A stretch of 64,000 bases of DNA from Candidatus Levybacteria bacterium RIFCSPHIGHO2_01_FULL_37_17. GTDB taxonomy: Bacteria > Patescibacteriota > Microgenomatia > Levybacterales > UBA12049. The stretch covers positions 148,078 through 212,077 of the forward strand of contig MFNL01000001.1 of the NCBI GenBank assembly GCA_001782035.1. Reading direction: 5' to 3'. Of the stretch, positions 8,753-47,815 are shown in pieces (the stretch's first letter is position 1; each line of letters starts with the position of its first letter). A model generated the notes under the pieces. The model was not told the origin of the DNA. It did not search any database and worked only from the letters and a program-made list of their open reading frames with translations. Both the position numbers and the translations under genes were made by a program.

Positions 8753-9543
8753 AGATTAAAAACATTACCCGCATTTTTAGTTGTAACTCTGTCAATCTCA
8801 CTAAAAGAAACACCTTTAAGTTGGGCTATGTATTTAGCTGTTATTATAACATAGCTAGGCTCATTCCTACTACCTCTGTGGGGAATTGGAGAAAGAAAAG
8901 GCGCATCTGTTTCTACGACTAATTTATTAAGTGGAGTTCTTTTTAATAGTTCGAAAAGGGCAATAACTTCTCCTTTGGCAATTCCTTCGTATGTTATATT
9001 TCCATCGAAACCGATATAAAATCCCAGATCCAAAACTTCTTTCAAAACTTGAAAATCCGATGCAAAACAATGAAACATTCCCGGAATATTTCTTAATGAA
9101 TTTTTGTATTTTTTTAGACTCTTAACAACATCTTTACCTGCTTGTCTATTATGTATTTGGAGTGGTACATTTTTATTTATTGCAATTTTAATTTGTGTTT
9201 CAAAAACCTCCTTCTGTAAGTTTGAATCTACAATTCCGTTAGATGCATAACTGTAATAATCAAGGCCTATTTCCCCGATTGCTAAAACTTTTGGTTGTTC
9301 CAATAATTTTTCAATTTGCCTCTCCCAACCCTTGCTTAATTTGTCGGCATGATGCGGATGAATTCCGACAATTGCATAAAGCTCCTCATATTTTTGGGCT
9401 AGTTCAACGGCTTTTTTACTTGATTCCAAAGAGGTGCCGACATTTATTATTTTTTTAACGCCACTTTTTTTTGCTCTTTCCAAGACCTCCTCTAAATCGT
9501 TTTCAAAAGCCTTGAAATTTAAATGGCAATGGACATCTATCAT
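8749..9543 (-). CDS. tatD: TatD-family metal-dependent hydrolase/DNase
   Basis: The N-terminal IDVHCHL signature and the TatD fold length of 264 aa are present. Confidence 0.85.
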   Translation of the reverse strand: MIDVHCHLNFKAFENDLEEVLERAKKSGVKKIINVGTSLESSKKAVELAQKYEELYAIVGIHPHHADKLSKGWERQIEKLLEQPKVLAIGEIGLDYYSYASNGIVDSNLQKEVFETQIKIAINKNVPLQIHNRQAGKDVVKSLKKYKNSLRNIPGMFHCFASDFQVLKEVLDLGFYIGFDGNITYEGIAKGEVIALFELLKRTPLNKLVVETDAPFLSPIPHRGSRNEPSYVIITAKYIAQLKGVSFSEIDRVTTKNAGNVFNL

Positions 9544-10832
9544 AAGATAATAAGTTCATAACGTCCGTTTGGCTCTATTTGCCAAATTCTTTTATTTACA
9601 GGAAGAGTTTTTACAATATCCTGCTTCTCATATAAGATTCCTCCAATATAAAATGGCACTTTCCCGGACTTTGCATGCGCATAAACGGGAATATCCCTGC
9701 TGCTTTTTTCGGCGTAGTATTTTACTTCCAGAAAGTTAAGAGAATTTTTTGGAATTATAATATCGCCCTCTTTTGCTTGCTTTGTTATTTCCAAAACTCC
9801 CGATTTAATATCTGCTTTAGTTTGCTTATTTAAAATTTCTATACTCGAAAGACCTAATGTTAATAGATAAAATGCGAGCAAAATAGTAAGTCCTGTCCTA
9901 AGCAGTGAATTTTTCTGCAAAAAATTATAAAGAGTATATCCAATAAATAAGATAAGTAATGGAGTCGATAAAATTAAATATCTCTCGTAATATATTGGAG
10001 TGAAATATTGTGAAAAGATAAAAGTAGCAATTACAGGAATAAATATTAGACCAATAATTAACCAAATAAAACTATTTTTTTCTTTAGTGAGTTTCAAAAT
10101 GAAAGACATAATTGAGGTTACAAATAAAATTCTGCTTAAGTATAAAATAATTAATTTTTGTGAATAATGAAGTTCACCAGAGGTAAATATTTTAAAGGTG
10201 GATGAAAAAGAAGAAAGCGTGGGCCTTGGAATCCAAAATCCTTCTTTAAATTTTGACCACTGCGCAAAAATTACCCCGCCCCATAAAAGCATTATTATAA
10301 CAGGGAAGCAGACTAGTTTTAAAAATTCTTTTTTATTAAAATTTTTTCGGTTTGCAATAAGCCACCAAACGATAACTATAAAAAAAGTAAGAACAGCGAA
10401 GTTGTGTGTGAAAATCGCCATTGCCAAAAAAGCTCCAGCTAATAAATTTTTATTTGTTTTTACAAAGTAGAGGGATAAAACCGAAAGAAATACTACCATA
10501 CTGTACGCTCTGGCTTCAAAAGCGTATTGGAGCAAAAAGGGATTTATAAGCGTTGCGAAAGCTATGATTAGCGATACAATTTTTGATTTAATCAATTTTG
10601 CGGCGAGTAAATAAATTAAAACTGTAGTACCTAAATGGAAGAAAAGTGAAAGGGTTCTTATGGAAACTTCTGTATTCCCAAATAAAATCATCCAAAAGTG
10701 TAGTAACAAATAGTAAAAAGGGGGGGAGGGATCCTGAGTAGATAGTACAAAAATCTGAAATATACTTTTCCCTGCCAATATAACCGAAAAAGCCTCGTCT
10801 CGCCAAAGGGATTGAGTTAATAGGGGCAACAT
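9540..10832 (-). CDS. GT-C fold glycosyltransferase, family 39/83 (PMT/ArnT-like)
   Basis: It is a polytopic membrane protein with a DE motif in the first loop (WRDEAFS) and the ArnT/PMT architecture. Confidence 0.65.
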   Translation of the reverse strand: MLPLLTQSLWRDEAFSVILAGKSIFQIFVLSTQDPSPPFYYLLLHFWMILFGNTEVSIRTLSLFFHLGTTVLIYLLAAKLIKSKIVSLIIAFATLINPFLLQYAFEARAYSMVVFLSVLSLYFVKTNKNLLAGAFLAMAIFTHNFAVLTFFIVIVWWLIANRKNFNKKEFLKLVCFPVIIMLLWGGVIFAQWSKFKEGFWIPRPTLSSFSSTFKIFTSGELHYSQKLIILYLSRILFVTSIMSFILKLTKEKNSFIWLIIGLIFIPVIATFIFSQYFTPIYYERYLILSTPLLILFIGYTLYNFLQKNSLLRTGLTILLAFYLLTLGLSSIEILNKQTKADIKSGVLEITKQAKEGDIIIPKNSLNFLEVKYYAEKSSRDIPVYAHAKSGKVPFYIGGILYEKQDIVKTLPVNKRIWQIEPNGRYELIIL

Positions 10833-10891
10833 AACATATTGAGTATAGCAAATAAATTGTAATTTAAAGAATATAACGCTAAGATTGATAA

Positions 10892-12280
10892 ATGAAATTC
10901 TGGGAAGACAAACATAAGCTAATACTTCTCATTTTTTTCCTCGCCTACATTGGTTATTTTTTACTCACATCTTTTCTTCGTCAAAATAATTTCCATACAG
11001 GAAAGTTTGATTTGGGAAATATGGACCAGACGGTTTGGAACACAATACATGGACGAATATTTGAAATGTCGGATGAAAATGGGATAATTATTTCGCGACT
11101 GGCTTTCCACGCAGATGTAATATTGGTTTTAATCTCTCCATTGTATTTGATTTGGGAAGATCCAAAAATGCTTCTTTTACTTCAGGTACTAATAGTTGCA
11201 GCTGGTTCATTTTTCGTATATGCCATAGCGCTTGAGATTATTAAGAATAAGAATTACGCCCTACTTCTTTCATTTGCATATTTACTTAACCCGGCTGTTG
11301 AAAGGGCAAATCTATATGATTTCCATCCGGTTGTGCTTGCAGCCACTTTTCTTTTAGCAACATTTTATTTTTATATAAAGAAAAACTATAAACTATTTAT
11401 ATTTTTTGCAGTACTTTCAGCATTGTGTAAAGAGGAAATTTGGGCCGCTGTTTCTTTATTTGGATTGCTGTTATTTTTCCAGCAAAAAAAACGTTTACTT
11501 GGTGGATTATTCTTTTTTACTAGTATAAGCATATTTTATTTACTTATCTGGCACATAATTCCGGCAGTTTCAGGAGCACAGCATTTTGCCATTTCTTATT
11601 ATTCTGATTTAGGCGACTCCCCCAGCAATATAGTTATTAGCATATTATCATCACCCGATAAAGTTCTTGATATTCTTACGCAGCCAGACAGGATAAATTA
11701 TCTTGTGAAATTATTTTATCCTCTTGGTTTTTTATCACTTTTTTCTCCTTTGTATCTTATATTTGCAATCCCCGATTTATTTATAAATCTTCTATCCCAA
11801 AGAAGCTTGTTTCGAGAATTTTACTATCATTACACAGCGACTATTTCCCCATTTATATTTATTTCGGCAATTTATTCTATTGCCATTTTAAAAAGAAAAA
11901 TAGCACCTAACATTATAAATGCATACATTTTATTATTCAGCCTTTTCGCTGCTTATCTTTACGGTCCTTTGCCGGGAGCTCGTGGACAAGATATAGCAAT
12001 GTATACCAAAATTGTAAAAAACCAATCATTTATTAACAAATACTTAGTGGCAATCCCAAAAAATTATAGCGTCGCAGTTACTAATAATCTAGGAGCACAC
12101 GTTTCTCAAAGACAAAAAGTTTATGTTTTGCCACATGGCATTGGTGAAGCCGATTTTATTATCTTTTTAAGAATAAGAGGAGTAGTAGAAAAACCTTTGC
12201 TTTTAAAAGTAGAAAATGACCCAAACTACAGTCTCATTTTAAAAAAGGAAGAATTCCTAGTTTTTAAAAAAATTAATTAA
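10892..12280 (+). CDS. DUF2079-like polytopic membrane protein (putative GT-C-like envelope protein)
   Basis: The FDLGNMDQ motif and the architecture typical of the DUF2079 family are present. It is adjacent to the glycosyltransferase genes. Confidence 0.5.
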   Translation: MKFWEDKHKLILLIFFLAYIGYFLLTSFLRQNNFHTGKFDLGNMDQTVWNTIHGRIFEMSDENGIIISRLAFHADVILVLISPLYLIWEDPKMLLLLQVLIVAAGSFFVYAIALEIIKNKNYALLLSFAYLLNPAVERANLYDFHPVVLAATFLLATFYFYIKKNYKLFIFFAVLSALCKEEIWAAVSLFGLLLFFQQKKRLLGGLFFFTSISIFYLLIWHIIPAVSGAQHFAISYYSDLGDSPSNIVISILSSPDKVLDILTQPDRINYLVKLFYPLGFLSLFSPLYLIFAIPDLFINLLSQRSLFREFYYHYTATISPFIFISAIYSIAILKRKIAPNIINAYILLFSLFAAYLYGPLPGARGQDIAMYTKIVKNQSFINKYLVAIPKNYSVAVTNNLGAHVSQRQKVYVLPHGIGEADFIIFLRIRGVVEKPLLLKVENDPNYSLILKKEEFLVFKKIN

Positions 12281-12283
12281 ACT

Positions 12284-12634
12284 ATGGATGAAAAAAAATT
12301 TGAGAAAATGGTTGAGGAGGCACTAGAATCTTTACCGCAAGGGTTCAAAGATAAATTAAATAATGTTGCCGTAACTATTGAAGATTCTCCTTCTAATTCT
12401 TTGCTCAATCAAATGGGGCTTCCATCCTGGGCTCTTTTATTCGGGCTTTATCAGGGGGTTCCACAAACAAAAAGGGGAATTTATTACTCGGCTCCTCCGG
12501 ATAAAATTACAATTTTTAAGCATTCAATACTTCGTGTCTCACGTACTCCTGAGCAAGTTCGGGCACAAGTTCGCGCTACTGTAATTCACGAAATTGGACA
12601 TCATTTTGGTCTTTCAGATAAAGAGCTTAAATAA
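12284..12634 (+). CDS. Zincin-like metallopeptidase family protein (HEIGHHFG motif)
   Basis: VIHEIGHHFGLSD is an HExxH Zn-binding motif in a protein of about 116 aa, resembling the Zincin_1/DUF1025 family. Confidence 0.6.
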   Translation: MDEKKFEKMVEEALESLPQGFKDKLNNVAVTIEDSPSNSLLNQMGLPSWALLFGLYQGVPQTKRGIYYSAPPDKITIFKHSILRVSRTPEQVRAQVRATVIHEIGHHFGLSDKELK

Positions 12635-12635
12635 A

Positions 12636-13256
12636 TTACTGGGGACAATTAAGTTGTTGTAGGCAAGCTATTTTACTATCTCCGGACAAATAGTTACATG
12701 TGCTGCAATTTGCACCTTCCCCTGACTTTGGAAGCGTATATGCTGAAAGGTCCATAAATTTAACATTTGAGGGTGGTGTAAATTTGTTATTATCTACTAA
12801 CCACGGAGAACATTTATAGTCTACTTTTTGGTTTACATCATAATATTGATTGAACTGCTCGTTGGTTTTTAGATCTTCTTCTTTTAAGGTCATTTTGAAC
12901 CCTGCTTCCATACCCGTTCCCCACATATAATTTACATCACCATCTCTTATTAGATAAAACATAGAAGTTTCCCCTTCTGTTTTAGTTGTTACATCTCCTC
13001 TCATCTTCTTTCCGGAGAAATAAAAAGTACCCGTTGTTGAAACATCAGACGTTGCATAAGTGAAATCGCATTTTTGATTTCCACCTTTTGCAAGAATACC
13101 CCAAAGATTAACGCTTGAAGTTTCCTGATCTGTTTTTGTAGGAGCTGGCGTTAAATTTGTTTCCTGCCCAGATTTGTTTTGTCCTAAAACTAGATACCCA
13201 CCGATTCCAAGGAGTATTAACACAACTACTATCGCACCAACTATTCTTGTATTCAT
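12636..13256 (-). CDS. Secreted or membrane-anchored Cys-rich hypothetical protein
   Basis: It has an N-terminal TM/signal anchor, and its C-terminal region holds 7 Cys. There is no recognisable family. Confidence 0.45.
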   Translation of the reverse strand: MNTRIVGAIVVVLILLGIGGYLVLGQNKSGQETNLTPAPTKTDQETSSVNLWGILAKGGNQKCDFTYATSDVSTTGTFYFSGKKMRGDVTTKTEGETSMFYLIRDGDVNYMWGTGMEAGFKMTLKEEDLKTNEQFNQYYDVNQKVDYKCSPWLVDNNKFTPPSNVKFMDLSAYTLPKSGEGANCSTCNYLSGDSKIACLQQLNCPQ

Positions 13257-13496
13257 AGGCTGATTTTATACCTGCATGAGTACTAAGTCAATAATATCTT
13301 TAAGTTACTTGACAAAAGGGAAGCGGTTGAGCACATAATAGAGTATGGCCAAAAAACAAAAGTCCAAATATAAGCATTTTCAACTGCACGGTAAGCATAC
13401 AAATCAAGAGGTATTTGTTTATATAGTAGTAGTTTTAACTATTTCTTTTTTGGTCGGAATCTTTCTTAAGTTTCAATTCCTGACCTTTGCTTCCCC

Positions 13497-14951
13497 TTAA
13501 ATTCTTGGAAATAGCTGACTTTGCGAACTTACTTCTTTTCCAGAAAATTGTTTCTTAATTTTATTTGAAGTTTCAGGTAAAAACGGTTGCAGCAGGATAG
13601 AAATTTCAGCTATTTGGTCAACTGAGTGGGCAAGAACTGAATTCAAGTCTCTGCCTTTTCTATTTGTTGATAATTTTAAGAGTTCCCATGGCTTCTCATC
13701 GTTTATAAACTTATCTAAAACTCTGATTTTTTTCCAAATTAAACTTAGTGCCTCGTTAAATTTATATTCCTCCATAAGTTTTTTATATTCATCATATTCT
13801 TTTATAAGATGAGGAGCTTTATCTGATGCAAACTGCTTGTATCCTGCGTTCTCACAAAGTTTTGCAACTCTTGCAACTAAATTTCCAAGTCCATTTGCAA
13901 GGTCTGCGTTATAAACTTCTTCAAATCGCTCAAATATAAAATCATGATCTTCTTGTATTGGCACTTGTGAAAGCAAATAGTATCTGATTGCCTCCAAGCC
14001 GTATTCATCTATAACATCTTTAGGATCAGGTGCGTTATCAAGTGATTTCGAAAATTTTTCCCCACCTTTCGCATTAACAAAACCATGAATTAATATCTGC
14101 TTAGGTAAAGAAATTCCGGCAGACAACAGCATCGCGGGCCAATAAACAGTATGGAAACGATTGATATCTTTTCCAATAACATGCAAATCTGCTGGCCACC
14201 ATTTCTCCCATTTTTCTTCATCCCATCCAAATCCGACCCCTGTCATATAAATATTTAGAGCGTCAAACCAAACATAAATCTTTTGGCTTGCATCGTTGGG
14301 AACCGGCACTCCAACTCCTTGCGCTCTTTCATTCGATCTCGAAACACTAAAATCATCCAACCCTTGTTTTATAAAAGATAAAGCTTCTTCTCTCTTGTTT
14401 TGAGGAATTATCTTAAGAGCGTTCGACTCAATAAGTTCTATTAATTTATTCTGATACTTTGAGAGTTTAAAAAAATAATTTTCTTCGGAAACCTTTTCAG
14501 GCTTTGTTTGGTGTATTGGACATATGCCATCTACTAGTTCACCACTATTTTTAAAAGATTCACACCCTATACAATAAAGCCCCTCGTAAGGTTTTTTGTA
14601 AATATCTCCGTTTTTCTCACACAATTTCCATAACTTTTGTACACCAGGCCAATGTTTTTTTTCATCTGACCCTCTTTGAAATACATCTAAATGAACTCCG
14701 ACGAGCTCGTAAGTATCTTTCCAAATCTTTGAATACTTATCCAGGTAATCTTTAATAGGTAAGCCCTCTTTTTTAGCAGCTTGCACGTTCTTTAAAGCGT
14801 TTTCGTCCGCTCCAGACAGAAGGAAAGTTTCTTCTCCTAAGTCTTGATGGTAGCGCCTTATAACATCGGCTTGGAAATATTCAAGCGTGTGTCCAACGTG
14901 GGGCCTTCCATTTACATAGGGAATAGCTGTTGTTAGATAGAACTTGTTCAT
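13497..14951 (-). CDS. metG: Methionyl-tRNA synthetase
   Basis: HIGH (PHVGHT) and KMSKS (KFSKS) class I motifs are present. The start is chosen at MNKFYLTTAIPYVNG, whereas the ORF track extends to 14999. Confidence 0.9.
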   Translation of the reverse strand: MNKFYLTTAIPYVNGRPHVGHTLEYFQADVIRRYHQDLGEETFLLSGADENALKNVQAAKKEGLPIKDYLDKYSKIWKDTYELVGVHLDVFQRGSDEKKHWPGVQKLWKLCEKNGDIYKKPYEGLYCIGCESFKNSGELVDGICPIHQTKPEKVSEENYFFKLSKYQNKLIELIESNALKIIPQNKREEALSFIKQGLDDFSVSRSNERAQGVGVPVPNDASQKIYVWFDALNIYMTGVGFGWDEEKWEKWWPADLHVIGKDINRFHTVYWPAMLLSAGISLPKQILIHGFVNAKGGEKFSKSLDNAPDPKDVIDEYGLEAIRYYLLSQVPIQEDHDFIFERFEEVYNADLANGLGNLVARVAKLCENAGYKQFASDKAPHLIKEYDEYKKLMEEYKFNEALSLIWKKIRVLDKFINDEKPWELLKLSTNRKGRDLNSVLAHSVDQIAEISILLQPFLPETSNKIKKQFSGKEVSSQSQLFPRI

Positions 14952-14964
14952 AGGCAGAATTATA

Positions 14965-15339
14965 TCAGAGTTTGTTTCTTTCTTTAAATAAAACCTCAAG
15001 TCCCAAGAAAAATATTACTACAAGAATTGGGAAAAGAGCCTGTTTTAATCCCAAAGCCCTTATAATAAGGATTATTGATACAGCGGTTGCAATAAGGAGT
15101 GCGTGTCTTTTGTTGGCCAAAATATACCAGAACGCCGACCAGAAAAAAATAAAAACTGCAAACAGCACAATTGGTAAAATTGGGATTTCTACTGCGTAAA
15201 GCGGAACTGAAAATTTCGGGGGGAAAAATAGCACAAGGTAAAAAAAAGAAATAAGCGAAAATGCCGAAATAAAAATAAGAGGCAATAGTGATTTTCTTTT
15301 ACGCATAAAACAGAGCAAGCCAAAGGCAAACGAACCCAA
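14965..15339 (-). CDS. Hypothetical small membrane protein (possibly the downstream half of a frameshifted gene)
   Basis: It has four TM helices and overlaps 15299..15505 in another frame. Confidence 0.3.
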   Translation of the reverse strand: MGSFAFGLLCFMRKRKSLLPLIFISAFSLISFFYLVLFFPPKFSVPLYAVEIPILPIVLFAVFIFFWSAFWYILANKRHALLIATAVSIILIIRALGLKQALFPILVVIFFLGLEVLFKERNKL

Positions 15340-38463: not shown

Positions 38464-39189
38464 TCATATTTTATTGAGCCTTGCTTTTACTATCAGCCTT
38501 TTCCAAATTGTGCCGGGCGGAGTGCATGTAATTAATGTTAAAAAACTGTCGCTATAATTTTGCTCTAAAACAGATGTATCTGTTGGCTCAACTACGGTTA
38601 TTGACTCAACCTTATATTTATAAGTAATACTCCCAACCTTAACAATCAAATCATCTCCGGCCTGCAACTTAAACAGATATGAAAAAATTGTTTTATAGTC
38701 CTTTTCATTATAAAGCTGGGGAAGAGTAGAATGCCCGAAAATAACCGCGTTTCCTTTCTCAGGCGGCAGAGCTGTGCCACCATAATTAACTAAGTGTCGG
38801 GTCAAATCGGTATCATTTGCACTTACTACCGCGTCTTTTATATTTATTTTTGGTATGGAAATGTTATAGAGCGGAGTTTTTAAATTTTCGGCTCTCTGGT
38901 TATATCCCGGAAACCAATTTTGTGCATCCGTGTAATTTATCCCGGACAAAGACTCAGACGCGCCGCTTATTAATGATGCTAGCGTATTTCCCGAAACAAT
39001 ATTAACTTTGGGAATTGGTGCATTTATTTCCTGGTTTGCAAATACGGGAGCAAAATATATTTGCCAGGAAATTAACGGAAAAAACGAATATAGAAGTATC
39101 GAAATTCCAAGAGTTAGTACTACAAAACTTAAAAGCTTTAAAACTCTTTTTTTATTCTTAGGGTCTTTTTTTTTGTAATATTTAACCAT
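38464..39189 (-). CDS. Sortase (transpeptidase), TLxTC family
   Basis: It has an N-terminal TM anchor, the catalytic His in VIFGHSTLP, the catalytic Cys in LTLITCTPPG (TLxTC), and a downstream Arg (RLIVKAR). Confidence 0.85.
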   Translation of the reverse strand: MVKYYKKKDPKNKKRVLKLLSFVVLTLGISILLYSFFPLISWQIYFAPVFANQEINAPIPKVNIVSGNTLASLISGASESLSGINYTDAQNWFPGYNQRAENLKTPLYNISIPKINIKDAVVSANDTDLTRHLVNYGGTALPPEKGNAVIFGHSTLPQLYNEKDYKTIFSYLFKLQAGDDLIVKVGSITYKYKVESITVVEPTDTSVLEQNYSDSFLTLITCTPPGTIWKRLIVKARLNKI

Positions 39190-41445
39190 TTAATTGCTGT
39201 TAACATTTATAATTATGTTGGCAGGATTTTTTGGTAAAGCTGAAGACAAAAAGGGAATTGGCGGAAAAACAGATATTTCAACGCTTTTCACTTTATCTAA
39301 ATTACTTAAAAGATTTTTTGCTTTTCCAACGTCCATTCCTTTTATGTCTTCAGCAAGAGACTTGGTATCAATTTTAGCAACAGCCTTAATTTCAATCGTA
39401 AGATCTGCAGAAACATCCCTGTTGCGCGCAACGGTTAAGTCTTTAACATTTGTTTTAATACTGCTTTTCATAATTTCTGTTTCTGAATCATTAAAAAGAT
39501 TTTGAACAAAATTTATCATGTCGGAGTTTGAATATGCGATATAGTTAAACGCAACGGCGCCAGTCAATATAAGCTTATTTGATTCATCTCCTTCCTTTTT
39601 ATCGAATTTCTCGCTTAAGAGCTCGGTGTCTATAAACTGAGGTAAAATTGTCATTCCACTTTCAACTTTCTTGCTTAAATCTTGCTCTGCTTTAGTTGTC
39701 AGTTTTTTAGGAAGCTCTGCTCTTGCATTTGCAAAATCTTCTTTTGAAACAACCAGTACATTTTTCTTACTACCTCCTGAGAAAGCGTTGTCATTTTTAG
39801 CGCCAATTGATTTATTTGAACCAATTGTAAATTTAGTATCAGATGGTAAGTTATATTCCGTTCCAATGTCCTCTGCCGTAACATTCGCATTAGTAGTTCC
39901 CGGTTTTGTACCGGAAAAAACATCCCCCGACGCAGAAGCTACAGAAACTCCACTATCTAACAAAAAGTCTAATTCATTTGAAGAGGTTATTATAGTACCC
40001 TTAGCAAGACTAACAGGATCTGTATCGTTGTTGAAAATAGTAACCGTTCCTTTTGCTTTCTCTCCTACATCTTTTTTGCCTTTTACGTCCACCGTTACGG
40101 ATCCTTCCTCTTCAATAGGAACTATTTTTGCTTCTAGTAATTTATCATCGAGGTTGGTAGTTGAGTTAGGAGAAAAAGTTAAGCTTTCGTCTTTTGTTAG
40201 AGTTTGCAAATCAATAGCAAGCTTTACAGTCGCCTTAGTTTGGAATATAAAAACAAAATAAAAAAATATAAAAAGAGCTATTATTCCTAAGCCAATAAAC
40301 AACAATTTTTTATCTTTTATCCCTCCGTTTCTTAAAGATGAAAGTGCTTCTTTAGATAACAAATTTTGAAAAAGGGAAAGTGCAGATTTTGCTTTTTCAA
40401 CCAGTAAAACACCCAGGGTACCGATATTCAGTTTTTTTTCTGTTTTTATTTTTACATCTTCGGGTATTTCTTCACTGACTTCTTTTAAAGCTTCATCATG
40501 CAGGGCACTTTTTTCACTTACTTTGTCCTGTTGTACATCTTTTGCAACGTCGCTTTTACTAAAGCCGAAAAAATCCATAGACCCTTCTTTTCCGACATAA
40601 TCTAAATTTTGTCCTTCTATTCCTTTTTCTTCCGAAACATTCTCGAAACTCTTATTTTGCTCTACTCTTTCTACATCCGATGCATCAAACTCTAATTTTG
40701 CCCCCATTTGTGTAGCTGCCCCAAGTAAAACCGCCTTTATATCGGAATTTGTTGGCAGCATTTGAATTTGAGGAATGTGTAGAAAATTTAAGCTTTTACT
40801 CCACTGATGGTTTATAAATTCCTGAGTTAACTCATCCTCGTCGGAGTTAATTAAGATAATTCTTGCAGGCATAACAGCAGGAGTCTCCAAGTGCTTTAAT
40901 AAAGTCTCAACTGTAAAAGAAGCGCCTTGATGAATTTCGCTTGTTTTTGCTTCCATGACTCTACCGCTTTTTATGTAGTAAGCGGTCAAGTATTTTTTCC
41001 CAACTTCAGCAATTATTGCAGTTACGGGCGCTCCTTCTTCTTTCTGCAGCAAATTTGTTAGGCTCTCGCTAAAAGTTAAAAAACCAATTGGCTCAAGTCC
41101 CAGTTCATCTCCGGCTTTTTTTAGCTTATCCAAATATTCCTTTTTAATTTTTTCATTCTCTATCCAGTTATCCTTAAGAGCAAGAATTGTTTTATATTTA
41201 TCAACCGTACTAGTAAGCGGGATTTCGGCTCCGGAAATAGCTTTATCCAAAACACTCAAAAATTCCTCAAGCGAAGCATTCTCGATGGTGCTTGTAAATT
41301 CTTCTTCGTTTGCGCTTACGTACTTTAGCGTATGTGTGGTTTTCTCAAAAATTACGGCTTTTGCTTTCTCGTTTCTTAAAATAAGAGAAAGATAAAATTC
41401 TTTTTCCTCTTTTTTCCAAAGGTTTGGCAGGCTTGATATTTTCAT
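39190..41445 (-). CDS. Large bitopic membrane protein (~360-aa cytoplasmic N-domain, one TM helix, ~370-aa extracytoplasmic domain), function unknown
   Basis: A single strong TM helix (LLFIGLGIIALFIFFYFVFIF) lies mid-protein. There is a weak resemblance to an actin-like (FtsA/PilM) fold in the N-domain. The gene is in an operon with the sortase and alaS. Confidence 0.5.
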   Translation of the reverse strand: MKISSLPNLWKKEEKEFYLSLILRNEKAKAVIFEKTTHTLKYVSANEEEFTSTIENASLEEFLSVLDKAISGAEIPLTSTVDKYKTILALKDNWIENEKIKKEYLDKLKKAGDELGLEPIGFLTFSESLTNLLQKEEGAPVTAIIAEVGKKYLTAYYIKSGRVMEAKTSEIHQGASFTVETLLKHLETPAVMPARIILINSDEDELTQEFINHQWSKSLNFLHIPQIQMLPTNSDIKAVLLGAATQMGAKLEFDASDVERVEQNKSFENVSEEKGIEGQNLDYVGKEGSMDFFGFSKSDVAKDVQQDKVSEKSALHDEALKEVSEEIPEDVKIKTEKKLNIGTLGVLLVEKAKSALSLFQNLLSKEALSSLRNGGIKDKKLLFIGLGIIALFIFFYFVFIFQTKATVKLAIDLQTLTKDESLTFSPNSTTNLDDKLLEAKIVPIEEEGSVTVDVKGKKDVGEKAKGTVTIFNNDTDPVSLAKGTIITSSNELDFLLDSGVSVASASGDVFSGTKPGTTNANVTAEDIGTEYNLPSDTKFTIGSNKSIGAKNDNAFSGGSKKNVLVVSKEDFANARAELPKKLTTKAEQDLSKKVESGMTILPQFIDTELLSEKFDKKEGDESNKLILTGAVAFNYIAYSNSDMINFVQNLFNDSETEIMKSSIKTNVKDLTVARNRDVSADLTIEIKAVAKIDTKSLAEDIKGMDVGKAKNLLSNLDKVKSVEISVFPPIPFLSSALPKNPANIIINVNSN

Positions 41446-41446
41446 G

Positions 41447-43243
41447 TTAAGTGACTTTGGCGTAAATTCTTTTTTGTCCTTTTCCTAAATTTTCCTGTTT
41501 TATTATTGTAAAACTATTTAGCTTGCCAGTAAAGTCAACATGGGGACCTCCGCAGAATTCGGCCGAGTACGGCCGTGGTGAGCCAGTCGAACCACCACCT
41601 ATAAAATAAACCTTAACTTCTCCTTCGTACTTATCGTCAAACAGTCCGATTGCCCCAATTTCTTTGGCTTTTTGCAAGGGCAGCATTTCAAAAGAAATAG
41701 GTAAGTTTTCTAAAATTTTATCGTTGACTATGTCTTGTACTCTTTTTAACTCGTCTATAGTTAACATTCTATCCAAATTAAAATCAAAGCGTACCCGCTC
41801 GCTTGTAATATTGCTTCCTGTCTGGTGAAGCTCATTACCAAAAACATCTCTTAGCGCTTGGTGCAAAAGGTGGGTTGCGGTATGCCCCTTAATTGTAAGT
41901 TCACTGTGATCTGCCAATCCTCCTTTAAACATTCCACTTGATGCGGTTTTGGATTTTTTGCTGTGCTCCTCCATTAAACCTGCAAACTTTTGCTCATCAA
42001 ATATATATCCGAGGCTTTTTATTTGTGTAGGAGATAGGCCGTGGGTTGAGTACATTTTAAAAGCTTCATCTGCTGAAATTTGCTTAGTCCCATTATCATC
42101 CGCGCCACCGATTATTTTCTCCGCAACATTTATAACATTTTTATAGTTTTCCTGTTCTTGTAAAATTACATTTTTAATTTCTTCAAAGTTTTGGCTTAAG
42201 CTTTTATCTGTTTTGGCACACTCTGCAACAATTGCACTTATTATATTTTCAACATCTGCTTGTCCTGAGCTTGCCGAATGGGCATGTCCTAAGTTATCCA
42301 AAGCGCGCCTTATTAATCTTCTTAAAATATATCCGCGTTCTTTGTTAGAAGGCACAACTTTTCCATCTATTAAATAAACGGCTGCTCGCAAATGGTCGGC
42401 AACAATTCTCATAGAATTTTCATTACCTTTATACTGCTTGCCCGATTCTCTCTCAATCGCTTTTATAATTGGCTCAAACAAGGAAGTTTTAAAAATATCG
42501 CTTTTGTCCTCAACTGCTGCGAGTAACCTTTCCAATCCTCCTCCAAAATCTACATTTTTTTGCGGTAATTCTTTAAAAACGTCCTCAGTTTTTTGGTACT
42601 GAATAAAAACGCTGTTTGCGATTTCCAAAAACTTTCCGCATTCGCAAGTAACCGGGTCTTTTCCTTTGCAGCCCTTGAAATGAGGATTATCAAATTCATA
42701 ATAGACCTCTGTATCAGGGCCGCCAATCTCTCCTACAGGCATATTTGCAGGAACGCCACTTCTGCTCCACCAGTTTTTATCTACTCCTGCCCAAAAAATA
42801 CGCTCTTTTGGCACAATCTTTGACCAAATCTCAAATGATTCATTATCCTTCTCAACTCCTTCTGTCCCTTCAAAAATCGTAATATACAGCCTCTCACTAG
42901 GAATTTTTAATTCCTCGGTGAGAAACTCCCAAAGCCATGGTATTTCTTCTTTTTTAAAGTAGTCTCCCAAGCTCCAGTTTCCAAGCATTCTAAAAAAAGT
43001 TGTATGTCTATTGTCTCCGACTTCATCTATATCAACTGCCCTAAAGCTATTTTGAACATTAACCAGCCTTTTGCCTGCAGGATGGACCTCGCCCAAAAGA
43101 TAGGGGATTAAAGGCTGCATGCCGGAGGATGTAAAAAGGGTAGTTGGGTCATCTATTGGAACAAGAGGGGAATTTGTAATTCTCTTATGCCCTTTCCCCT
43201 CAAAGAATTTTATATATTTTTCGATTATATCTTTCCCAGTCAT
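41447..43243 (-). CDS. alaS: Alanyl-tRNA synthetase (short form: catalytic, tRNA-binding and editing domains, no C-Ala domain)
   Basis: The N-terminal class II motifs (FTSSGMQPLIPY; FFRMLGNWSLGDYFK) and the editing HxxxH/CxxxH region (HTATHLLHQAL … FCGGPHV) are present. The length is 598 aa. Confidence 0.9.
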   Translation of the reverse strand: MTGKDIIEKYIKFFEGKGHKRITNSPLVPIDDPTTLFTSSGMQPLIPYLLGEVHPAGKRLVNVQNSFRAVDIDEVGDNRHTTFFRMLGNWSLGDYFKKEEIPWLWEFLTEELKIPSERLYITIFEGTEGVEKDNESFEIWSKIVPKERIFWAGVDKNWWSRSGVPANMPVGEIGGPDTEVYYEFDNPHFKGCKGKDPVTCECGKFLEIANSVFIQYQKTEDVFKELPQKNVDFGGGLERLLAAVEDKSDIFKTSLFEPIIKAIERESGKQYKGNENSMRIVADHLRAAVYLIDGKVVPSNKERGYILRRLIRRALDNLGHAHSASSGQADVENIISAIVAECAKTDKSLSQNFEEIKNVILQEQENYKNVINVAEKIIGGADDNGTKQISADEAFKMYSTHGLSPTQIKSLGYIFDEQKFAGLMEEHSKKSKTASSGMFKGGLADHSELTIKGHTATHLLHQALRDVFGNELHQTGSNITSERVRFDFNLDRMLTIDELKRVQDIVNDKILENLPISFEMLPLQKAKEIGAIGLFDDKYEGEVKVYFIGGGSTGSPRPYSAEFCGGPHVDFTGKLNSFTIIKQENLGKGQKRIYAKVT

Positions 43244-43367
43244 ATAGCTTCAATTATACACTGTTATTTCCGCCTTGTCCCTCGAAGTTGAAACGAAGTG
43301 GGAAGTTTTGCACGAACGTAGGAGGATCAGTTTTCGGTCTCATCTTTAAAAGCCTAACTCAAAGCAG

Positions 43368-43428
43368 TATAATTTGACTTCGGGATTTTTACTTAGGATT
43401 TTGTTTGGAAATTTTGGTTGGAGTTTCA
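43368..43428 (+). repeat. Repeat copy A (~60 nt; ATAATTTGACTTCGGGATTTTTACTTAGGATTTTG…ATTTTGGTTGGAGTTTC)
   Basis: It is about 85% identical to copy C at 46957..47018 in the same orientation, and a degenerate short copy B lies at 46273..46304. Confidence 0.75.
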
Positions 43429-43477
43429 AGTGGTAAATGATTATTCTCCCGCTCAAATTTGATCTTAGTCCCATAGT

Positions 43478-43506
43478 TTGATATTTTACCCCTTTTTTAG
43501 TATAAT
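43478..43506 (+). promoter_or_regulatory. Promoter TTGATA-N17-TATAAT placed 8 nt before the ATG of the 911-aa gene (leaderless-type)
   Basis: Read directly from the sequence. Confidence 0.55.
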
Positions 43507-43514
43507 TCTCCCTT

Positions 43515-46250
43515 ATGACACTTGAAAGATTTGAACGTAGAGCGCGGCCTAAGCCAAGCCACATCCGTGGTTTAAATTCATTATTTGAGTTTAACAAGAC
43601 TAGACAAGGGTTAAATTTGGATCAGGGCGTTTTCGAAGGCAAAAATAAAGTCAGACCAATTGTTAGAGGGCAAATACAAGAAGTAGATTCAAATCCTTCC
43701 AAAACTCTTAAATCAAATCCTGTATATAGATGGATAAGAAGAGACGCTTCGCAATTTGAAGCTATAGCTTTAAGGGATCAGGACGTTAAAAAGGGTCTTG
43801 CAACTATTGATGATTTAGTCGATAGACTTTCTAATAATACCTTGGAAGAGGAAGAAAAAAGACTAAATACACTGGCTGTAGCAGAAAAAACAGAGGAGGT
43901 AGCAATTCTTGCCGCTCCATATGTACCCCGCTCCCAAAAGAAAAATCCTGAGAGTCAAGACGATGAAAACGGTGAGTCTTCAAATAAACAAAAGCGAGAA
44001 AAAGAAAAAGCTCCTAAGCCAAAGAGTAAAGGAAGTAGCGTAAGCTTAAGCTTAGACTTAAAACTTCCAAGAATTCCTCAACTCGATAAATTATTTGAAT
44101 CACTTTCAAAGTTTTTCGCCGGCTTTAAAAACAGACTTAGAACATCAAACAATGGGGACCTTTTGCATCCTCTATTAACTAGATTTCAGGAAGCTGGAAG
44201 AGAAAGAAAATGGAAATTACTACCTAACAGCATTGAACTAATGAGAACTAATAAAGAACTAATGAGAAACTTAACTCCCGCTGGCTTTATCATTACAAAA
44301 ATTATGAATAAATATGACGAGAATACAGGTGAGTTAACAGTTGATGCCCCAAGACAAGTGGACATTCCATTGGGATACGATAGTAGATATGAAATTGGAA
44401 CTCCTCTTGGAAGAGTAGATCCGGCAAAGGTTGAGGTTATTGGAATACCTATTCCTACTGATGGTAATTATAGAGCTGTTGGAGCAAGAGGATTTAAATA
44501 TAATTTATCAGAAGTAGCCCTTGTTACAGAAAAAAATAAAGAGATAGTTGGCCAACGTCAAATTGAAATTTACGTAGAAAAAGACGAACTAGGAAACCTG
44601 GTTATAAACTTAAAAGGCATGCCAAAAGATTTGCAGGATGAAATAAAGAAGGCAAATATAGTTTTGAAGACCAAATACACTGAGTCATACCGCTATGGAC
44701 ACTCCATAGAACAAGCTAACTGGATAGATGCGCTGCCTGAAAACGAAAGGTACAGACTAAATATGTATCCCCCTGAAATTGCTAAATTCGTGACAACTCT
44801 TCTTGAGAAAAAGAAAAATAAAATTCGTGGCTTTATGGACAACGATGAAATATTTGCAAGATTAGCTCAATTTCTTGGAGACTATTGGTTAACATATGAT
44901 CTTTTGGACGCAAGAATAAACGAAAACGAACCCATTGGCTTTAGGCAAACAGAAAGAGTTTTAAACGGCAACCTAGCATCTTGCGAAGGTTCAAATATAG
45001 CACTTGGACAACTGATGAGATACTTCTTAGAAGAAGATGAAGGTATTGCTTATGTGGAAGGATTTGTAGCAGAAGGTTCCTCTATTACATCCAGAAACTT
45101 ACACTTAAAAGTACTGTATAAAGATCAGGTTGGAGGAAAACACCTTTTTGATGCAACTCCTTGGGCGGAAGAGGATCATGTTATGTTTAATGTTCTTTCT
45201 AGAAGAAGGAAATTAGCTGCGCAAGAATGGTATTCAAAGAGTCGAAGACTGCGAGAAGGAGAATTATTAAAACTAAGAGATGAATTGCCAAACAGAATCG
45301 GAAAAGTTTCAGAACGAATAAGAACTTCTTGGCAGGATACATCAGATTTGCCCCGGACTTTAACGCAAAGGATGCAAAGAGAACATCTGTATCTAAGCTC
45401 TATGAACGCAGATCAACCCGATGAAAATCAATTAATTGCAGAAACTATAGTCTGGCGAAAAAGATGGTTTAAGAGTGACTATCATACGATTCCAAAAGAG
45501 CTAGGCTACTTTTTTAGAGAACAATATAATGTAGAGCGCTATGGACAACTATGGAGATTTCCACATGGTGTTATCGATGGAAAAATCGATTTCGACATAA
45601 AATTTTTAAAAGGTAAGTTTTATTCTGAGTCTAATGAGACTTCCTTTAACTTATTTAAATATCTTGATCAAACCGCAACCCACCCTATACTTAGCGACTT
45701 AGAGCGGCAACAAAGAATTTTTAGACTTATGACCAATGTGAGTGAACAGGCTTTAATTGCATCCAATCAAAATGTAGAAACGCTTAATTTGGTGGCACAG
45801 CAGGTTGAAAATTTATCTGCATACTACCGGGAAAGATTTATTAAAATTTTTGAAAGCGTTCGTGGATCGCTAAATGTTGAGCCACAAACTTTTTTTGACT
45901 CATTCCCTTTCTTGCTTTTACTGGGAAATCCATACAATAGCTTACAAGATTTATTAACTAGATCACTTGATCCAGACACCCTAGGCTTTCTTGTTACATC
46001 AGATGGTAAGAGTCTTAAAGAAAATATTGATAGGAAACTTTACTCGTGGAAACATATTGCAGAAATGAGGTTAGAGCATTATCAAGACTCAATTAAAAGA
46101 GTCCCAAAAACAACAGGCAGAGAAAGGGTAGTTGTATCGAGTACTTACTTATGGGAAAAATTAATTTCAGAATCTCCAATTATAAAGAAGAGGGATAAAA
46201 AATATTTGGAACCTGAGGAAACTTTTTTTCACCTTCTCCAAGCAGATTAA
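43515..46250 (+). CDS. Large hypothetical cytoplasmic protein (911 aa) with a possible central transglutaminase-like Cys-His-Asp core
   Basis: The ORF is long and uninterrupted. It contains a candidate triad (LASCEGSNIALGQLMRYF … NLHLKVLY … GGKHLFDATPW) resembling the TGase-like GxCxxFA…HAWxEVY…FDPT pattern. It has a low-complexity K/E-rich N-terminal region and no TM segment. Confidence 0.55.
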   Translation: MTLERFERRARPKPSHIRGLNSLFEFNKTRQGLNLDQGVFEGKNKVRPIVRGQIQEVDSNPSKTLKSNPVYRWIRRDASQFEAIALRDQDVKKGLATIDDLVDRLSNNTLEEEEKRLNTLAVAEKTEEVAILAAPYVPRSQKKNPESQDDENGESSNKQKREKEKAPKPKSKGSSVSLSLDLKLPRIPQLDKLFESLSKFFAGFKNRLRTSNNGDLLHPLLTRFQEAGRERKWKLLPNSIELMRTNKELMRNLTPAGFIITKIMNKYDENTGELTVDAPRQVDIPLGYDSRYEIGTPLGRVDPAKVEVIGIPIPTDGNYRAVGARGFKYNLSEVALVTEKNKEIVGQRQIEIYVEKDELGNLVINLKGMPKDLQDEIKKANIVLKTKYTESYRYGHSIEQANWIDALPENERYRLNMYPPEIAKFVTTLLEKKKNKIRGFMDNDEIFARLAQFLGDYWLTYDLLDARINENEPIGFRQTERVLNGNLASCEGSNIALGQLMRYFLEEDEGIAYVEGFVAEGSSITSRNLHLKVLYKDQVGGKHLFDATPWAEEDHVMFNVLSRRRKLAAQEWYSKSRRLREGELLKLRDELPNRIGKVSERIRTSWQDTSDLPRTLTQRMQREHLYLSSMNADQPDENQLIAETIVWRKRWFKSDYHTIPKELGYFFREQYNVERYGQLWRFPHGVIDGKIDFDIKFLKGKFYSESNETSFNLFKYLDQTATHPILSDLERQQRIFRLMTNVSEQALIASNQNVETLNLVAQQVENLSAYYRERFIKIFESVRGSLNVEPQTFFDSFPFLLLLGNPYNSLQDLLTRSLDPDTLGFLVTSDGKSLKENIDRKLYSWKHIAEMRLEHYQDSIKRVPKTTGRERVVVSSTYLWEKLISESPIIKKRDKKYLEPEETFFHLLQAD

Positions 46251-46272
46251 AGCCTCTTATTTCTTTAATGCA

Positions 46273-46304
46273 ACAATTTGACTTTGGGGTTTTAGGATTA
46301 GCTC
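46273..46304 (+). repeat. Degenerate short copy B of repeat A/C (CAATTTGACTTTGGGGTTTTAGGATTAGCTCA)
   Basis: It shares the AATTTGACTTYGGGRTTTT…AGGATT core, with a 5-nt deletion relative to A and C. Confidence 0.5.
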
Positions 46305-46305
46305 A

Positions 46306-46506
46306 TTAGTGGTGTTTGAAGCTTTGTTTTCCGGTCTTTTGTATCAGTACACGTTCTACTCCCATTTTTGCTTTACTGGTTCCTGCTTTTTGCTGATTCC
46401 AGTTTTTAGCTTTTGATTTATCCTTTTTCTTTTTTGCGCCAAGCTCAAAAGGAATATTTGGTTTATAGTTAAAATCGTGTTCTATCATTGGAGTGGAATA
46501 TATCAC
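46306..46506 (-). CDS. Hypothetical small basic protein (66 aa)
   Basis: This ORF-only call lies between repeat B and the ArsR gene. It is Lys-rich and has no recognisable family. Confidence 0.25.
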   Translation of the reverse strand: MIYSTPMIEHDFNYKPNIPFELGAKKKKDKSKAKNWNQQKAGTSKAKMGVERVLIQKTGKQSFKHH

Positions 46507-46602
46507 ACTACATTACAAATCTCAATTTCATTAACCTTGTTAAACAACCGCCAAATTTTTACCAGCATAGCTCCCAACCAAAACCCTCAACACAAACCAC
46601 CC

Positions 46603-46635
46603 TTAAATACTGGAGTTTTTAAGGATAGTTTGATA
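46603..46635 (+). repeat. Direct repeat DR1a (AAATACTGGAGTTTTTAAGGATAG…)
   Basis: It matches DR1b at 46933..46960 at 25/26 positions. The two copies flank the ArsR-family gene. Confidence 0.7.
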
Positions 46636-46646
46636 TAAATTAACTA

Positions 46647-46934
46647 ATGGGAAAATTAAAGACTGCAAAGCAGATGGAGCGACACTTAAAGGGAATTTCT
46701 AACCACTACCGAATAGAAATCTTACTACTTATCGACAACAACAAAGACATAGCATTGGACGGGATAATTTTAAAGCTTAAGGCAAACGAGAAAACTATTG
46801 GTGAACACACAAGAAGACTCTACGCCGCAGGATTAATTAATAAGAAATACCAAGGAAACTTTGTTTTGCACAGCCTATCTCCATATGGCAAGAAGTTCGT
46901 CAACTTTTTAAAAGCTTTTCAAAAGACAGACTGA
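46647..46934 (+). CDS. ArsR/SmtB-family winged-helix transcriptional regulator
   Basis: It carries the ArsR pattern HYRIEILLLIDNNKDIALDGIILKLKANEKTIGEHTRRLYAAGLINKKYQGNFVLHSL in a protein of 95 aa. Confidence 0.7.
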   Translation: MGKLKTAKQMERHLKGISNHYRIEILLLIDNNKDIALDGIILKLKANEKTIGEHTRRLYAAGLINKKYQGNFVLHSLSPYGKKFVNFLKAFQKTD

Positions 46935-46960
46935 AATACTGGAGTATTTAAGGATAGATA
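46933..46960 (+). repeat. Direct repeat DR1b (GAAATACTGGAGTATTTAAGGATAGATA), abutting repeat C
   Basis: See DR1a. It lies immediately 5' of repeat copy C. Confidence 0.7.
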
Positions 46961-47018
46961 ATTTGACTTCGGGTTTTTTTACTTAGGATTTTGCTCGGAG
47001 ATTTTGGTTCGAAGTCCT
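46957..47018 (+). repeat. Repeat copy C (~60 nt), direct repeat of copy A
   Basis: The sequence is GATAATTTGACTTCGGGTTTTTTTACTTAGGATTTTGCTCGGAGATTTTGGTTCGAAGTCC. Confidence 0.75.
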
Positions 47019-47320
47019 TCTGCTAACTTACTATAAAACTCTTGCCTGTCCCACGCTTGTGGCACGCCCCCCGGTGCATGGCCTAGCCCCCAGCTAATAT
47101 GCTCTGCTGTTAAAGCATTCTCTCCTGCAGAAAGCGCTTCTTCATGTAATAAATTTTCCGCCCGAGCTAAGTCTCCTGCTTTTAAATCTTTTAGGGCTCT
47201 TCGAATACTTAATTTCTTTAAAGGGCCTGCGCTTTTTCGCAGGTGAATTAATTCTTCCATCGCCCTTTGCTCGATAGGTTTTTCTTCAATTTGAACTTCT
47301 TTTCCGCTTTCCACACCCAA
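46979..47320 (-). CDS. Hypothetical protein (113 aa) with slightly higher GC than its surroundings; contains an R-x5-H (RAENLLH) motif
   Basis: The ORF runs divergent from the PEBP gene, and its last 13 codons are read through repeat copy C. No family was recognised, and the HEPN-like motif is not diagnostic. Confidence 0.35.
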   Translation of the reverse strand: MGVESGKEVQIEEKPIEQRAMEELIHLRKSAGPLKKLSIRRALKDLKAGDLARAENLLHEEALSAGENALTAEHISWGLGHAPGGVPQAWDRQEFYSKLAEGLRTKISEQNPK

Positions 47321-47365
47321 ATTATATCAAATTCAGGCTTTTGCGTTATAATATTGCATTAGCAA

Positions 47366-47815
47366 ATGAAAATTACAAGCAGCGCATTTGAAGATAATCA
47401 GAAAATTCCCGACAAATACACATGTGATGGGGAAAACATAAATCCTTCTTTAGAGTTTGAGAATATTCCAGACAATGCAAAGAGCTTGAGCTTAATAATG
47501 GAAGATCCGGATGTGCCAAAAGATTTAAGAGCCGATGGCATGTTTGATCACTGGGTTGTTTTTAATATTCCACCAGAAATAATTTCAATCGAGGAAAACT
47601 CAGAGCCTTTAGGTATTGTCGGGCAAAACACCAGAGGAGACTCAAAGTATACAGGTCCGTGCCCGCCGGACAGAAAACACAGATATTTTTTCAAGCTGTT
47701 TGCACTTGATGTTATTCTTGATCTTGACTCAAGTGCCACTAAAAAAGACGTAGAAAAGGCTATGGCCGGGCATATGTTAGATAAAGCAGAATTAATGGGT
47801 ATTTACGAGCGTTGA
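47366..47815 (+). CDS. YbhB/YbcL-family PEBP (Raf-kinase-inhibitor-like) protein
   Basis: The PEBP motifs MEDPDVP (DPDxP) and KHRYFFKLFALD (HRY) are present in a protein of 149 aa. Confidence 0.8.
   Translation: MKITSSAFEDNQKIPDKYTCDGENINPSLEFENIPDNAKSLSLIMEDPDVPKDLRADGMFDHWVVFNIPPEIISIEENSEPLGIVGQNTRGDSKYTGPCPPDRKHRYFFKLFALDVILDLDSSATKKDVEKAMAGHMLDKAELMGIYER

Follow-up and report, generated by a model that had tools for sequence, protein, structure and literature searches.

How did the interval between alaS and rpoB of a groundwater bacterium come to hold a set of accessory genes punctuated by copies of one short direct repeat? Bacteria of the candidate phyla radiation (CPR) have small genomes with few recognisable integrases or transposases, and their mobile elements are poorly described. 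The interval was examined in a 64-kb stretch of DNA (the window) from a Candidatus Levybacteria genome (Microgenomates, CPR), that of an uncultured groundwater bacterium from the Rifle aquifer. A first-pass annotation of the window had proposed a horizontally acquired mobile island bounded by direct repeats. From the comparison of related contigs, the interval appears to be a flexible islet whose content turns over between lineages, and the evidence for this variability is strong. The repeats are copies of a boundary element of about 35–52 nt. It is proposed that the islet may have been built in a recombination hot spot by serial insertions, each of which duplicated the element at which it took place, a reading to which we give about an even chance.

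A short element repeated between alaS and rpoB

The genes are arranged in the order 751-aa gene (minus strand), alaS (minus), 911-aa gene (plus), 60/66-aa open reading frame (ORF; minus), 95-aa gene (plus), 111/113-aa gene (minus), PEBP-family gene (plus), and rpoB and rpoC (plus). The conserved left flank is alaS (41447–43243, minus strand, 598 aa), which was identified by Pfam (tRNA-synt_2c, 6e-100, and tRNA_SAD) and by synteny; its product is identical to NCBI protein A2798_01080. The island does lie between alaS and rpoB as annotated, but the PEBP-family gene (47366–47815, plus strand; Pfam PBP, 3.7e-41), the right flank, also stands between it and rpoB (47918/47945–51376, plus strand; Pfam rpoB domains).

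Two direct repeats, A and C, had been described as about 60 nt long and about 85% identical. Their existence and location stand; their size is closer to 52 nt and their identity closer to 90%. Alignment with blastn of 43369–43419/20 with 46958–47009 gave 90.4% identity over 52 columns with one 1-nt indel (E ~5e-10 against ~0.6 Mb), and global alignment matched 47 of 53 positions. A repeat scan returned 59 nt at 76% without gaps, plus a 22-nt family in three copies. The third of these, the degenerate copy B (46273–46304, minus strand), had also been noted and is real, matching 18 of 22 positions over the core with a deletion of 5–7 nt. It sits 1 nt downstream of the stop codon of the 60/66-aa ORF and 23 nt past that of the 911-aa gene. 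The identity of A and C falls sharply at 43420, from 90% to 54% or less; an anchored comparison detects a weak residual similarity beyond the 52-nt block (13/24, p ~0.005), which fades by 48 nt. Downstream of ..TCAAATTAT no relation between A and C is left (9/40), and local alignment found no significant similarity upstream of the 52-nt block.

Copy counts of the element refer to the 64-kb window. The 14-nt core AATTTGACTTYGGG has three exact occurrences there, all at this locus, against 0.12 expected, and its sole further match, at 19528, is mismatched and lies inside a DnaJ gene. The 10-mer AAGTCAAATT is found at A, B and C only. Both the 14-nt core and a 34-nt pattern of the element far exceed the shuffled expectation, and neither occurs in the window outside this locus. 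Assemblies made independently, from different samples and by different pipelines, show the A–B–C arrangement again (e.g. scaffold_79 of ENA sample ERZ28563803), which excludes an assembly artefact. In the strain of the window, several short contigs (L034, L039) end near repeat C or near D3b, a palindrome-bearing repeat presented below. Among metagenome contigs of the Joint Genome Institute, a pattern fitting all three copies matched the contig of a sister species and one unrelated contig of 1 kb (L023). The latter was rejected as a further copy, being a chance match in GC-rich DNA.

The reading frame indicates what the element contains. On the minus strand, repeat C (46958–47009) consists of the last ten codons (..TKISEQNPK) of the 111/113-aa gene, its stop codon and 21 nt downstream (AAAAAACCCGAAGTCAAATTAT). 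Repeat A (43369–43420, minus strand) reads ..TKISKQNPK* in the same frame, but a stop codon is met 36 codons upstream and there is no start codon. With no ORF upstream, copy A is most simply read as an orphan 3' gene fragment. The element spans about 35–52 nt, with a consensus near AAAATCCTAAGTAAAAACCCCGAAGTCAAATTAT and the almost invariant core AAGTCAAATT. Six copies from two species have in common AA(T/C)CCTAA...AAGTCAAATT(A/G)T. Within a locus the copies share one orientation, and each marks the 3' boundary of a small-gene module, or the outer edge of the island in the case of A. In the sister genome, one copy overlaps the stop codon of an unrelated 115-aa gene (..AAACCCTAATTTAAAAGTCAAATTGTT), and the 14-mer AAAGTCAAATTGTT is identical in this copy and in copy B. 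The element thus seems not to be bound to a single gene, since it is also present at the ends of the unrelated 115-aa and 60/66-aa genes.

A string in C, GGTTCGAAGTCC, had been likened to a tRNA T-arm and put forward as a possible remnant of an attachment (att) site. The string is present, but it is the antisense of GGA-CTT-CGA-ACC, which encodes G-L-R-T in the 111/113-aa gene. The sister orthologue has the same four residues encoded by GGT-CTT-AGA-ACC (GGTCTTAGAACC), and the retention of G-L-R-T with synonymous changes indicates that the constraint acts on the protein. ARAGORN found no tRNA or tmRNA gene in the window and Rfam gave no match; together with the coding frame, these results rule out a tRNA or tmRNA origin of the repeat. 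On neither strand did A, B or C fold better than shuffled sequences (z from -1.1 to +1.6), and a consensus scan found no intrinsic terminator at any of the three, which rules out a structured RNA or an intrinsic terminator at the element. A sigma-70 promoter formed by TTGACT and TAGGAT was likewise discarded, as the spacing of 14, 15 or 9 nt is unsuitable. Nor is the element dif-like: it has no 11-bp inverted arms around a 6-bp spacer, as judged by comparing its architecture only with the 28-bp dif of Xer, integrative mobile elements exploiting Xer (IMEX) and pdif.

Variability of the interval among relatives

Relatives were found through alaS, and the gene neighbourhoods of six contigs were read (L009, L011, L020, L042, L043 and L044; alaS 59–82% identical). 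The alaS-distal side has the same order in the window, L009, L042, L043 and L044: the 751-aa gene, a sortase, glycosyltransferase family 3, YceG, YtxH, HTH_25, FtsK and RNase J. On the rpoB-proximal side, the gene set differs among all six contigs and the window. In L009 (alaS 78% identical) there are an M78-like gene, a 94-aa gene, AHSA1, PEBP, a 185-aa gene and an M20 peptidase gene before rpoB; in L044 (75%), Schlafen/AlbA and genes of 241, 370 and 203 aa precede rpoB; and in L011 (59%) three unrelated genes do so. L042 (80%) carries a MazG-like gene, a type I restriction-modification system, a trypsin-like protease and a winged-helix protein 45% identical to that of the window. In L043 (80%) the slot is filled by an S26-like gene, a HinfI restriction-modification system and a LexA-like gene, and in L020 (82%) by toxin-antitoxin pairs, Fic, DUF3800 and an AlwI endonuclease. 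The 911-aa, 60/66-aa and 113-aa genes are found at this position in none of the relatives examined. The junction comparison that the first-pass annotation had proposed therefore shows a gene set proper to each genome, and no conservation of the island genes.

The left edge of the variable DNA is at 43373/43374. It is preceded by a conserved alaS-upstream block (43326–43374; with the corresponding region of L043, blastn gives 81.6% over 49 nt) that abuts repeat A and ends with a divergent -10 box, GCAGTATAAT (43364–43373). The sequence GCAGTATAATT is common to the window, L042 and L043, and in the two relatives the first variable gene starts 6–7 nt past the -10 box. Repeat A starts exactly at this edge.

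On the right, the divergent pair formed by the 113-aa gene and a PEBP-type gene recurs in another lineage, on contig L030, where the protein has 110 aa (P0008, 70% identical) and the neighbour is AHSA1, as in L009. This pairing makes the 113-aa gene a resident of the locus and not cargo. All four ORFs that had been reported as bracketed by the repeats exist. Their bracketing has to be revised: A and C enclose three genes (911, 60/66 and 95 aa), and only the last 31 nt of the 111/113-aa gene lie in C.

Some features of the neighbourhood were observed in passing. The 751-aa protein (39190–41445, minus strand) has a weak match to Baseplate_J and to phrog_6 (baseplate wedge) at residues 460–559. 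In the Levybacteria relatives its gene is directly downstream of alaS and is always followed by the sortase gene (38464–39189, minus strand, in the window), a conserved non-phage setting for a baseplate-J-like domain. In the alaS-upstream slot of L042, an ORF with an RVT_3 domain (reverse-transcriptase-like/RNase H-like; 7293–7730) lies between hsdM and hsdS of the type I restriction-modification system. Elsewhere, L005 437–18450 is syntenic with 5829–14999 of the window (Glycos_transf_4 ... TatD ... Zincin_1, 206 aa, MetRS). In the L005 block, P0002, a homologue of the 911-aa protein, is accompanied by DUF2207 and an RND efflux pair, which the window is without. The block is another variable slot that these genomes have in common.

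Two alleles in a sister species

A second Levybacteria species is represented by contig L022, which equals L026 and matches GCA_001782415.1 and scaffold_67 of ERZ28563803. It carries its own ribosomal-protein operons and is therefore a genome different from that of the window. This genome encodes a 108-aa protein (P0007) with 79% identity to the 113-aa protein of the window. Between the two genes the DNA identity is 83%, and the sister gene, too, has the element at its end.

Two alleles of this locus coexist in the same aquifer samples. The empty allele (L025, L028) has the order 115-aa gene, 108-aa gene and 54-aa gene, the last on the minus strand. In the occupied allele (L024, L026, L027, L029), the sequence of the empty allele runs to 4926, is followed by an insert of 1854 nt, and resumes from 4406. 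The insert contains an Acyl_transf_3 gene and a new N-terminus for a 162-aa ORF. It is flanked by a direct duplication of 521 bp that comprises the 3' part of the 115-aa gene and the entire 108-aa gene along with the 26 nt that follow it. On the left, the junction of the insert falls immediately after ..TCAAATTA / ..GTCAAATTA, that is, at the end of the element. The two 521-bp copies are identical except for the last ~30 nt, where the insert-proximal copy has a different variant of the element. This pattern is the one expected if a circular molecule with its own version of the element had recombined with the chromosome upstream of the differences, in the manner of a Campbell-type integration leaving attL/attR-like hybrids.

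In L024, a break of 100 nt, probably a run of N, is located inside the second copy of the duplication (12264–12363), which shows that the repeat disrupts short-read assembly.

In both species, a single cargo gene was also seen to be bracketed by direct repeats that bear a palindrome. In the window, the D3 repeat (38 nt, 82% identity between copies, palindrome CCTTAAATACT-GG-AGTWTTTAAGG) surrounds the winged-helix gene. D3a (46591–46628, with CCTTAAATACT-GG-AGTTTTTAAGG) lies 19 nt upstream of this gene and is a candidate operator; D3b (46920–46957) overlaps the stop codon of the gene and lies directly against repeat C. The sister species has a 70-nt repeat (L026 122–190 and 1472–1541, 81% identity, palindrome GGGAATGTCCC) that surrounds the acyltransferase gene and begins right after a copy of the element. 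The order of element, repeat, gene and repeat is the same in both species; the repeat sequences differ. These palindromic repeats could be operators, terminators or another kind of insertion scar.

Cargo and resident proteins

The 911-aa protein (43515–46250, plus strand) belongs to a very rare family: five matches were obtained in a search of 5.8 billion sequences, and about 19 representatives among 1.84 billion proteins. Its homologues stand in a different, unrelated context at each of four loci, one of them beside dnaA and dnaN, and at none of the four is the gene surrounded by flanking repeats of its own. The closest homologue (46% identical) is P0002, in the L005 block that is syntenic with 5.8–15 kb of the window.

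The first-pass annotation had left this protein without a function and advised family and structure searches. At the sequence level these were empty: no match was found in Pfam (16 family members searched, including against Transglut_core), PHROG or PADLOC, or among PDB sequences, the latter also queried with a profile. The alignment of 16 members showed invariant C490, H530 and D546 in the motif QTERVL..ASCEG.N..LGQLMR...H-LKV.Y...DATPW. As the full-length model was too poor (predicted local distance difference test score, pLDDT, of 56.8), only the model of the core domain (residues 400–640; pLDDT 82.5) was used. It places the conserved Cys, His and Asp in transglutaminase-type order on a transglutaminase-core fold, and Foldseek agrees weakly. 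The model shows a transglutaminase-like Cys-His-Asp fold at about residues 440–550, predicted to be catalytic. Compared with the bacterial transglutaminase-like cysteine proteases LapG/BTLCP, TgpA and TglA, the 911-aa protein is without a sequence-level match to Transglut_core or to any PDB chain, and unlike them it has its core embedded among a helical N-terminal domain, a low-complexity linker, a β-rich domain and a long helical C-terminus.

The basic ORF at 46306–46506 (minus strand) encodes 60 aa from the ATG at 46488, or 66 aa. No homologues of it were found, and it has no match in Pfam, PHROG or PADLOC. The 95-aa protein (46647–46934, plus strand) had been called an ArsR-family regulator. 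The ArsR assignment rests on a sub-threshold HTH_5 match (16.7 bits against a cut-off of 22). The 95-aa protein is 69% identical to a 103-aa protein encoded near recA in the sister genome and 45% identical to the winged-helix protein of L042. Its orthologue gives weak HTH_5 and weak MarR matches, and Csa3/CARF models match the 95-aa protein in the winged-helix part only. The protein is read as a small winged-helix regulator, ArsR/MarR-like but below threshold.

The resident gene (46979–47320, minus strand) encodes 111 aa from the GTG at 47314, or 113 aa, with a UBA-like segment and a sub-threshold match to EF-Ts_N of Pfam. Like the 911-aa and 60-aa proteins, the 111-aa protein has no match in PHROG or PADLOC, and IMG/VR contains no relatives of the 911-aa protein. 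Two matches to a 19-nt core in IMG/VR had no extended similarity and are within chance. In view of these results, a phage origin was ruled out.

A sigma-70-like promoter, TTGATA-17-TATAAT (43478–43506, plus strand), was recognised by a consensus scan at 11 of 12 positions and may serve the 911-aa gene, its -10 box ending 8 nt ahead of the ATG. A -10-like TATATT likewise precedes the ATG of the 60-aa ORF by 8 nt. More generally, -10 boxes stand 6–8 nt before the start codons, without a Shine-Dalgarno sequence, at the 911-aa (TATAAT), 60-aa (TATATT), 111-aa (TGATATAAT) and sister 108-aa (TGGTATAAT) genes; the sites are at 43501–43515, 46488–46502 and 47314–47330 in the window and at 4561–4576 in L025. 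This short spacing and the lack of a Shine-Dalgarno sequence suggest leaderless mRNAs for these small-gene modules.

The cumulative GC skew has a local minimum at 43244–43514, in the divergent intergenic region between alaS and the 911-aa gene. A replication origin at this minimum, at ~43 kb, was ruled out, as the skew tracks the gene strand across the whole window.

Discussion

The proposal that serial insertions at the boundary element built the islet can be put as follows. Read on the minus strand, the locus consists of three modules, namely the 111/113-aa gene, the winged-helix gene with the 60/66-aa ORF, and the 911-aa gene, ending in the same-orientation copies C, B and A, respectively. 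Cargo would enter by Campbell-type recombination at the element, the crossover either depending on RecA and on short homology borne by the incoming DNA or being the work of a recombinase whose gene lies elsewhere. The element would be duplicated at each insertion; the copy beside the target gene would keep that gene intact, and older copies would be pushed outward until the outermost, A, came to abut the conserved alaS promoter block. Several observations argue for this course of events. The repeats are significant and, in the window, confined to this locus, and they behave as att-type duplications do, copy C completing an intact gene while A is in the same frame without an ORF upstream. An insertion polymorphism exists at the same element in the sister species, and the element is also present at the ends of unrelated genes. 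The gene set beside alaS differs in each relative on the rpoB side only, and homologues of the 911-aa protein occur in four unrelated contexts. Finally, the outer edge of A coincides with the -10 box that ends the alaS-upstream block, the point from which relatives have their variable genes. We infer from these that insertion was the source of the copies, and likewise the order of events and the kind of enzyme responsible.

Several results weigh against this account. No integrase, transposase or relaxase domain was detected by Pfam in the island ORFs or in the ten integrase-sized ORFs elsewhere in the window, in agreement with the first-pass annotation, which had seen no integrase or transposase, and no integrase remnant was found among window ORFs of at least 50 aa. 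No empty-site or excised allele of this locus was found: contigs encoding an identical PEBP (22), 111-aa (3) or 911-aa (15) protein all have one and the same arrangement where long enough, and the suggested collapse of A and C to one copy is not seen; the closest other alaS is only about 80–82% identical. The composition of the island is native. Its GC content is 0.36–0.37, against 0.33–0.42 in the flanks, its tetranucleotide profile is unremarkable (z = -0.02, rank 42 of 101 windows), and its codon usage and GC content at third codon positions are typical of the window. A compositional anomaly is therefore ruled out for GC, tetranucleotides and codon usage, and the GC skew is explained by gene orientation. 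Copy B has decayed further than A, an outcome not predicted by a simple serial insertion in two steps. With 52 nt duplicated here and 521 bp in the sister species, the two events may differ in mechanism, and the 110-aa homologue in L030 is without the element. Of the mobile island first envisaged, the accessory, lineage-specific content is upheld; recent acquisition and active mobility are not, given the native composition, the lack of a recombinase and the lack of an empty site here. The island looks now fixed and immobile in its population.

The element might instead have been selected as a cis-acting signal at the ends of small genes, acting as a non-canonical terminator or mRNA 3'-end signal, as an antisense promoter, or as a site bound by the winged-helix protein, its link to variable genes being incidental. 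The core AAGTCAAATT(R)T, of 10–14 nt, is indeed preserved in every one of the six copies from both species, amid decaying flanks; a stop codon on the strand of the element precedes four of them by 0–25 nt; on the opposite strand each copy reads (A/T)A(T/C)AAT-TTGACTT..GGG-T-run, with promoter-like hexamers and a T-run; and both loci have a homologous winged-helix regulator. We nevertheless consider this explanation unlikely. Neither strand folds better than shuffled sequence, the terminator scan and Rfam were negative, the spacing of TTGACT and TAGGAT is unfit for sigma-70, and the element is absent from gene ends in the other 60 kb of the window. Moreover, A resembles C over 31 nt of the coding sequence of the latter, which points to duplication by descent and not to convergence. 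Such descent could also be that of local tandem duplications of the 113-aa gene, arising by slippage or unequal crossing-over, of which A and B would be decayed relics, the cargo having come or been rearranged independently, so that the repeats would tell nothing of its arrival. The tandem duplication of the whole gene in the sister species (521 bp), the native composition and the weak residual similarity of A over ~24 nt past the 52-nt block, as a longer decayed copy would leave, all fit this origin. It is made about as unlikely by the presence of the same element at the ends of the unrelated 115-aa and 60/66-aa genes, by the position of the copies exactly at module boundaries, and by the drop in identity at 43420, which is sharp and not gradual; the sister duplication, furthermore, encloses foreign DNA with a junction at the end of the element.

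A classical island mobilised by an integrase since lost, inserted in a tRNA-like att site, would account for direct repeats flanking a segment and for the T-arm-like appearance of GGTTCGAAGTCC. We regard it as very improbable: there is no tRNA or tmRNA gene in 64 kb and no Rfam match, the T-arm-like string is antisense coding sequence whose sister counterpart GGTCTTAGAACC specifies the same amino acids, and the ORFs have no trace of an integrase. Bolder than the insertion account, and with little probability in our estimation, is the idea that the ~35-nt element is the recombination site of a system encoded elsewhere that shuffles cassettes of one or two genes at the 3' ends of small genes, integron-like yet without a linked integrase or hairpins. 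The D3 repeats of the window and the R1/R2 repeats of the sister acyltransferase could then be part of the same machinery.

Under the serial-insertion proposal, the locus may be compared with known systems. Tycheposons integrate serially at one site and leave partial repeats of the target gene through the island (bioRxiv 10.1101/2020.12.28.424599). As in att-flanked islands and the tycheposons of Prochlorococcus, there are same-orientation direct repeats of ~40–50 nt; one of them supplies the 3' end that keeps a gene intact, with partial copies deeper, between modules; and a hot spot lies beside core genes, with a related genome having present and absent alleles within the same flanking sequence. 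Unlike in these systems, the target is a small protein-coding gene and not a tRNA or tmRNA gene, and neither a recombinase of the tyrosine or serine type nor an excisionase or a replication module is found here, be it whole or in fragments. The composition is native, the sister duplication of 521 bp is far longer than an att core, and the element closes unrelated small genes.

The syntenic flanks (alaS–751-aa–sortase on one side, rpoB–rpoC on the other) and the varied content of the relatives (restriction-modification, toxin-antitoxin, Fic, Schlafen-AlbA) are features shared with flexible genomic islands, replacement or additive, and with defence-island hot spots. Such islands need no mobility genes if exchange proceeds by homologous recombination in the flanks, and they need no internal repeats. 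The present modules differ in that a specific short element delimits each of them, an arrangement suggestive of addition at a defined site rather than of replacement of the whole. With integron cassette arrays the locus has in common small modules, mostly of one or two genes, that all have a related short site at their end, always in the same orientation, with many ORFs that look promoterless or leaderless. It differs from them by the absence of IntI among the ORFs tested in the window and of any attC-type hairpin, by cargo on both strands, and by having three modules only.

The locus and the two-allele locus of the sister species provide a concrete candidate for a recombination element in CPR bacteria and reveal a hypervariable slot at alaS/rpoB. 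In addition, a very rare family of ~900-aa proteins can now be assigned a predicted transglutaminase-like catalytic core. If the element is not a recombination site, the interval would be an ordinary flexible islet with leftover duplications. If it is one, it would show how streamlined genomes add and swap accessory genes.

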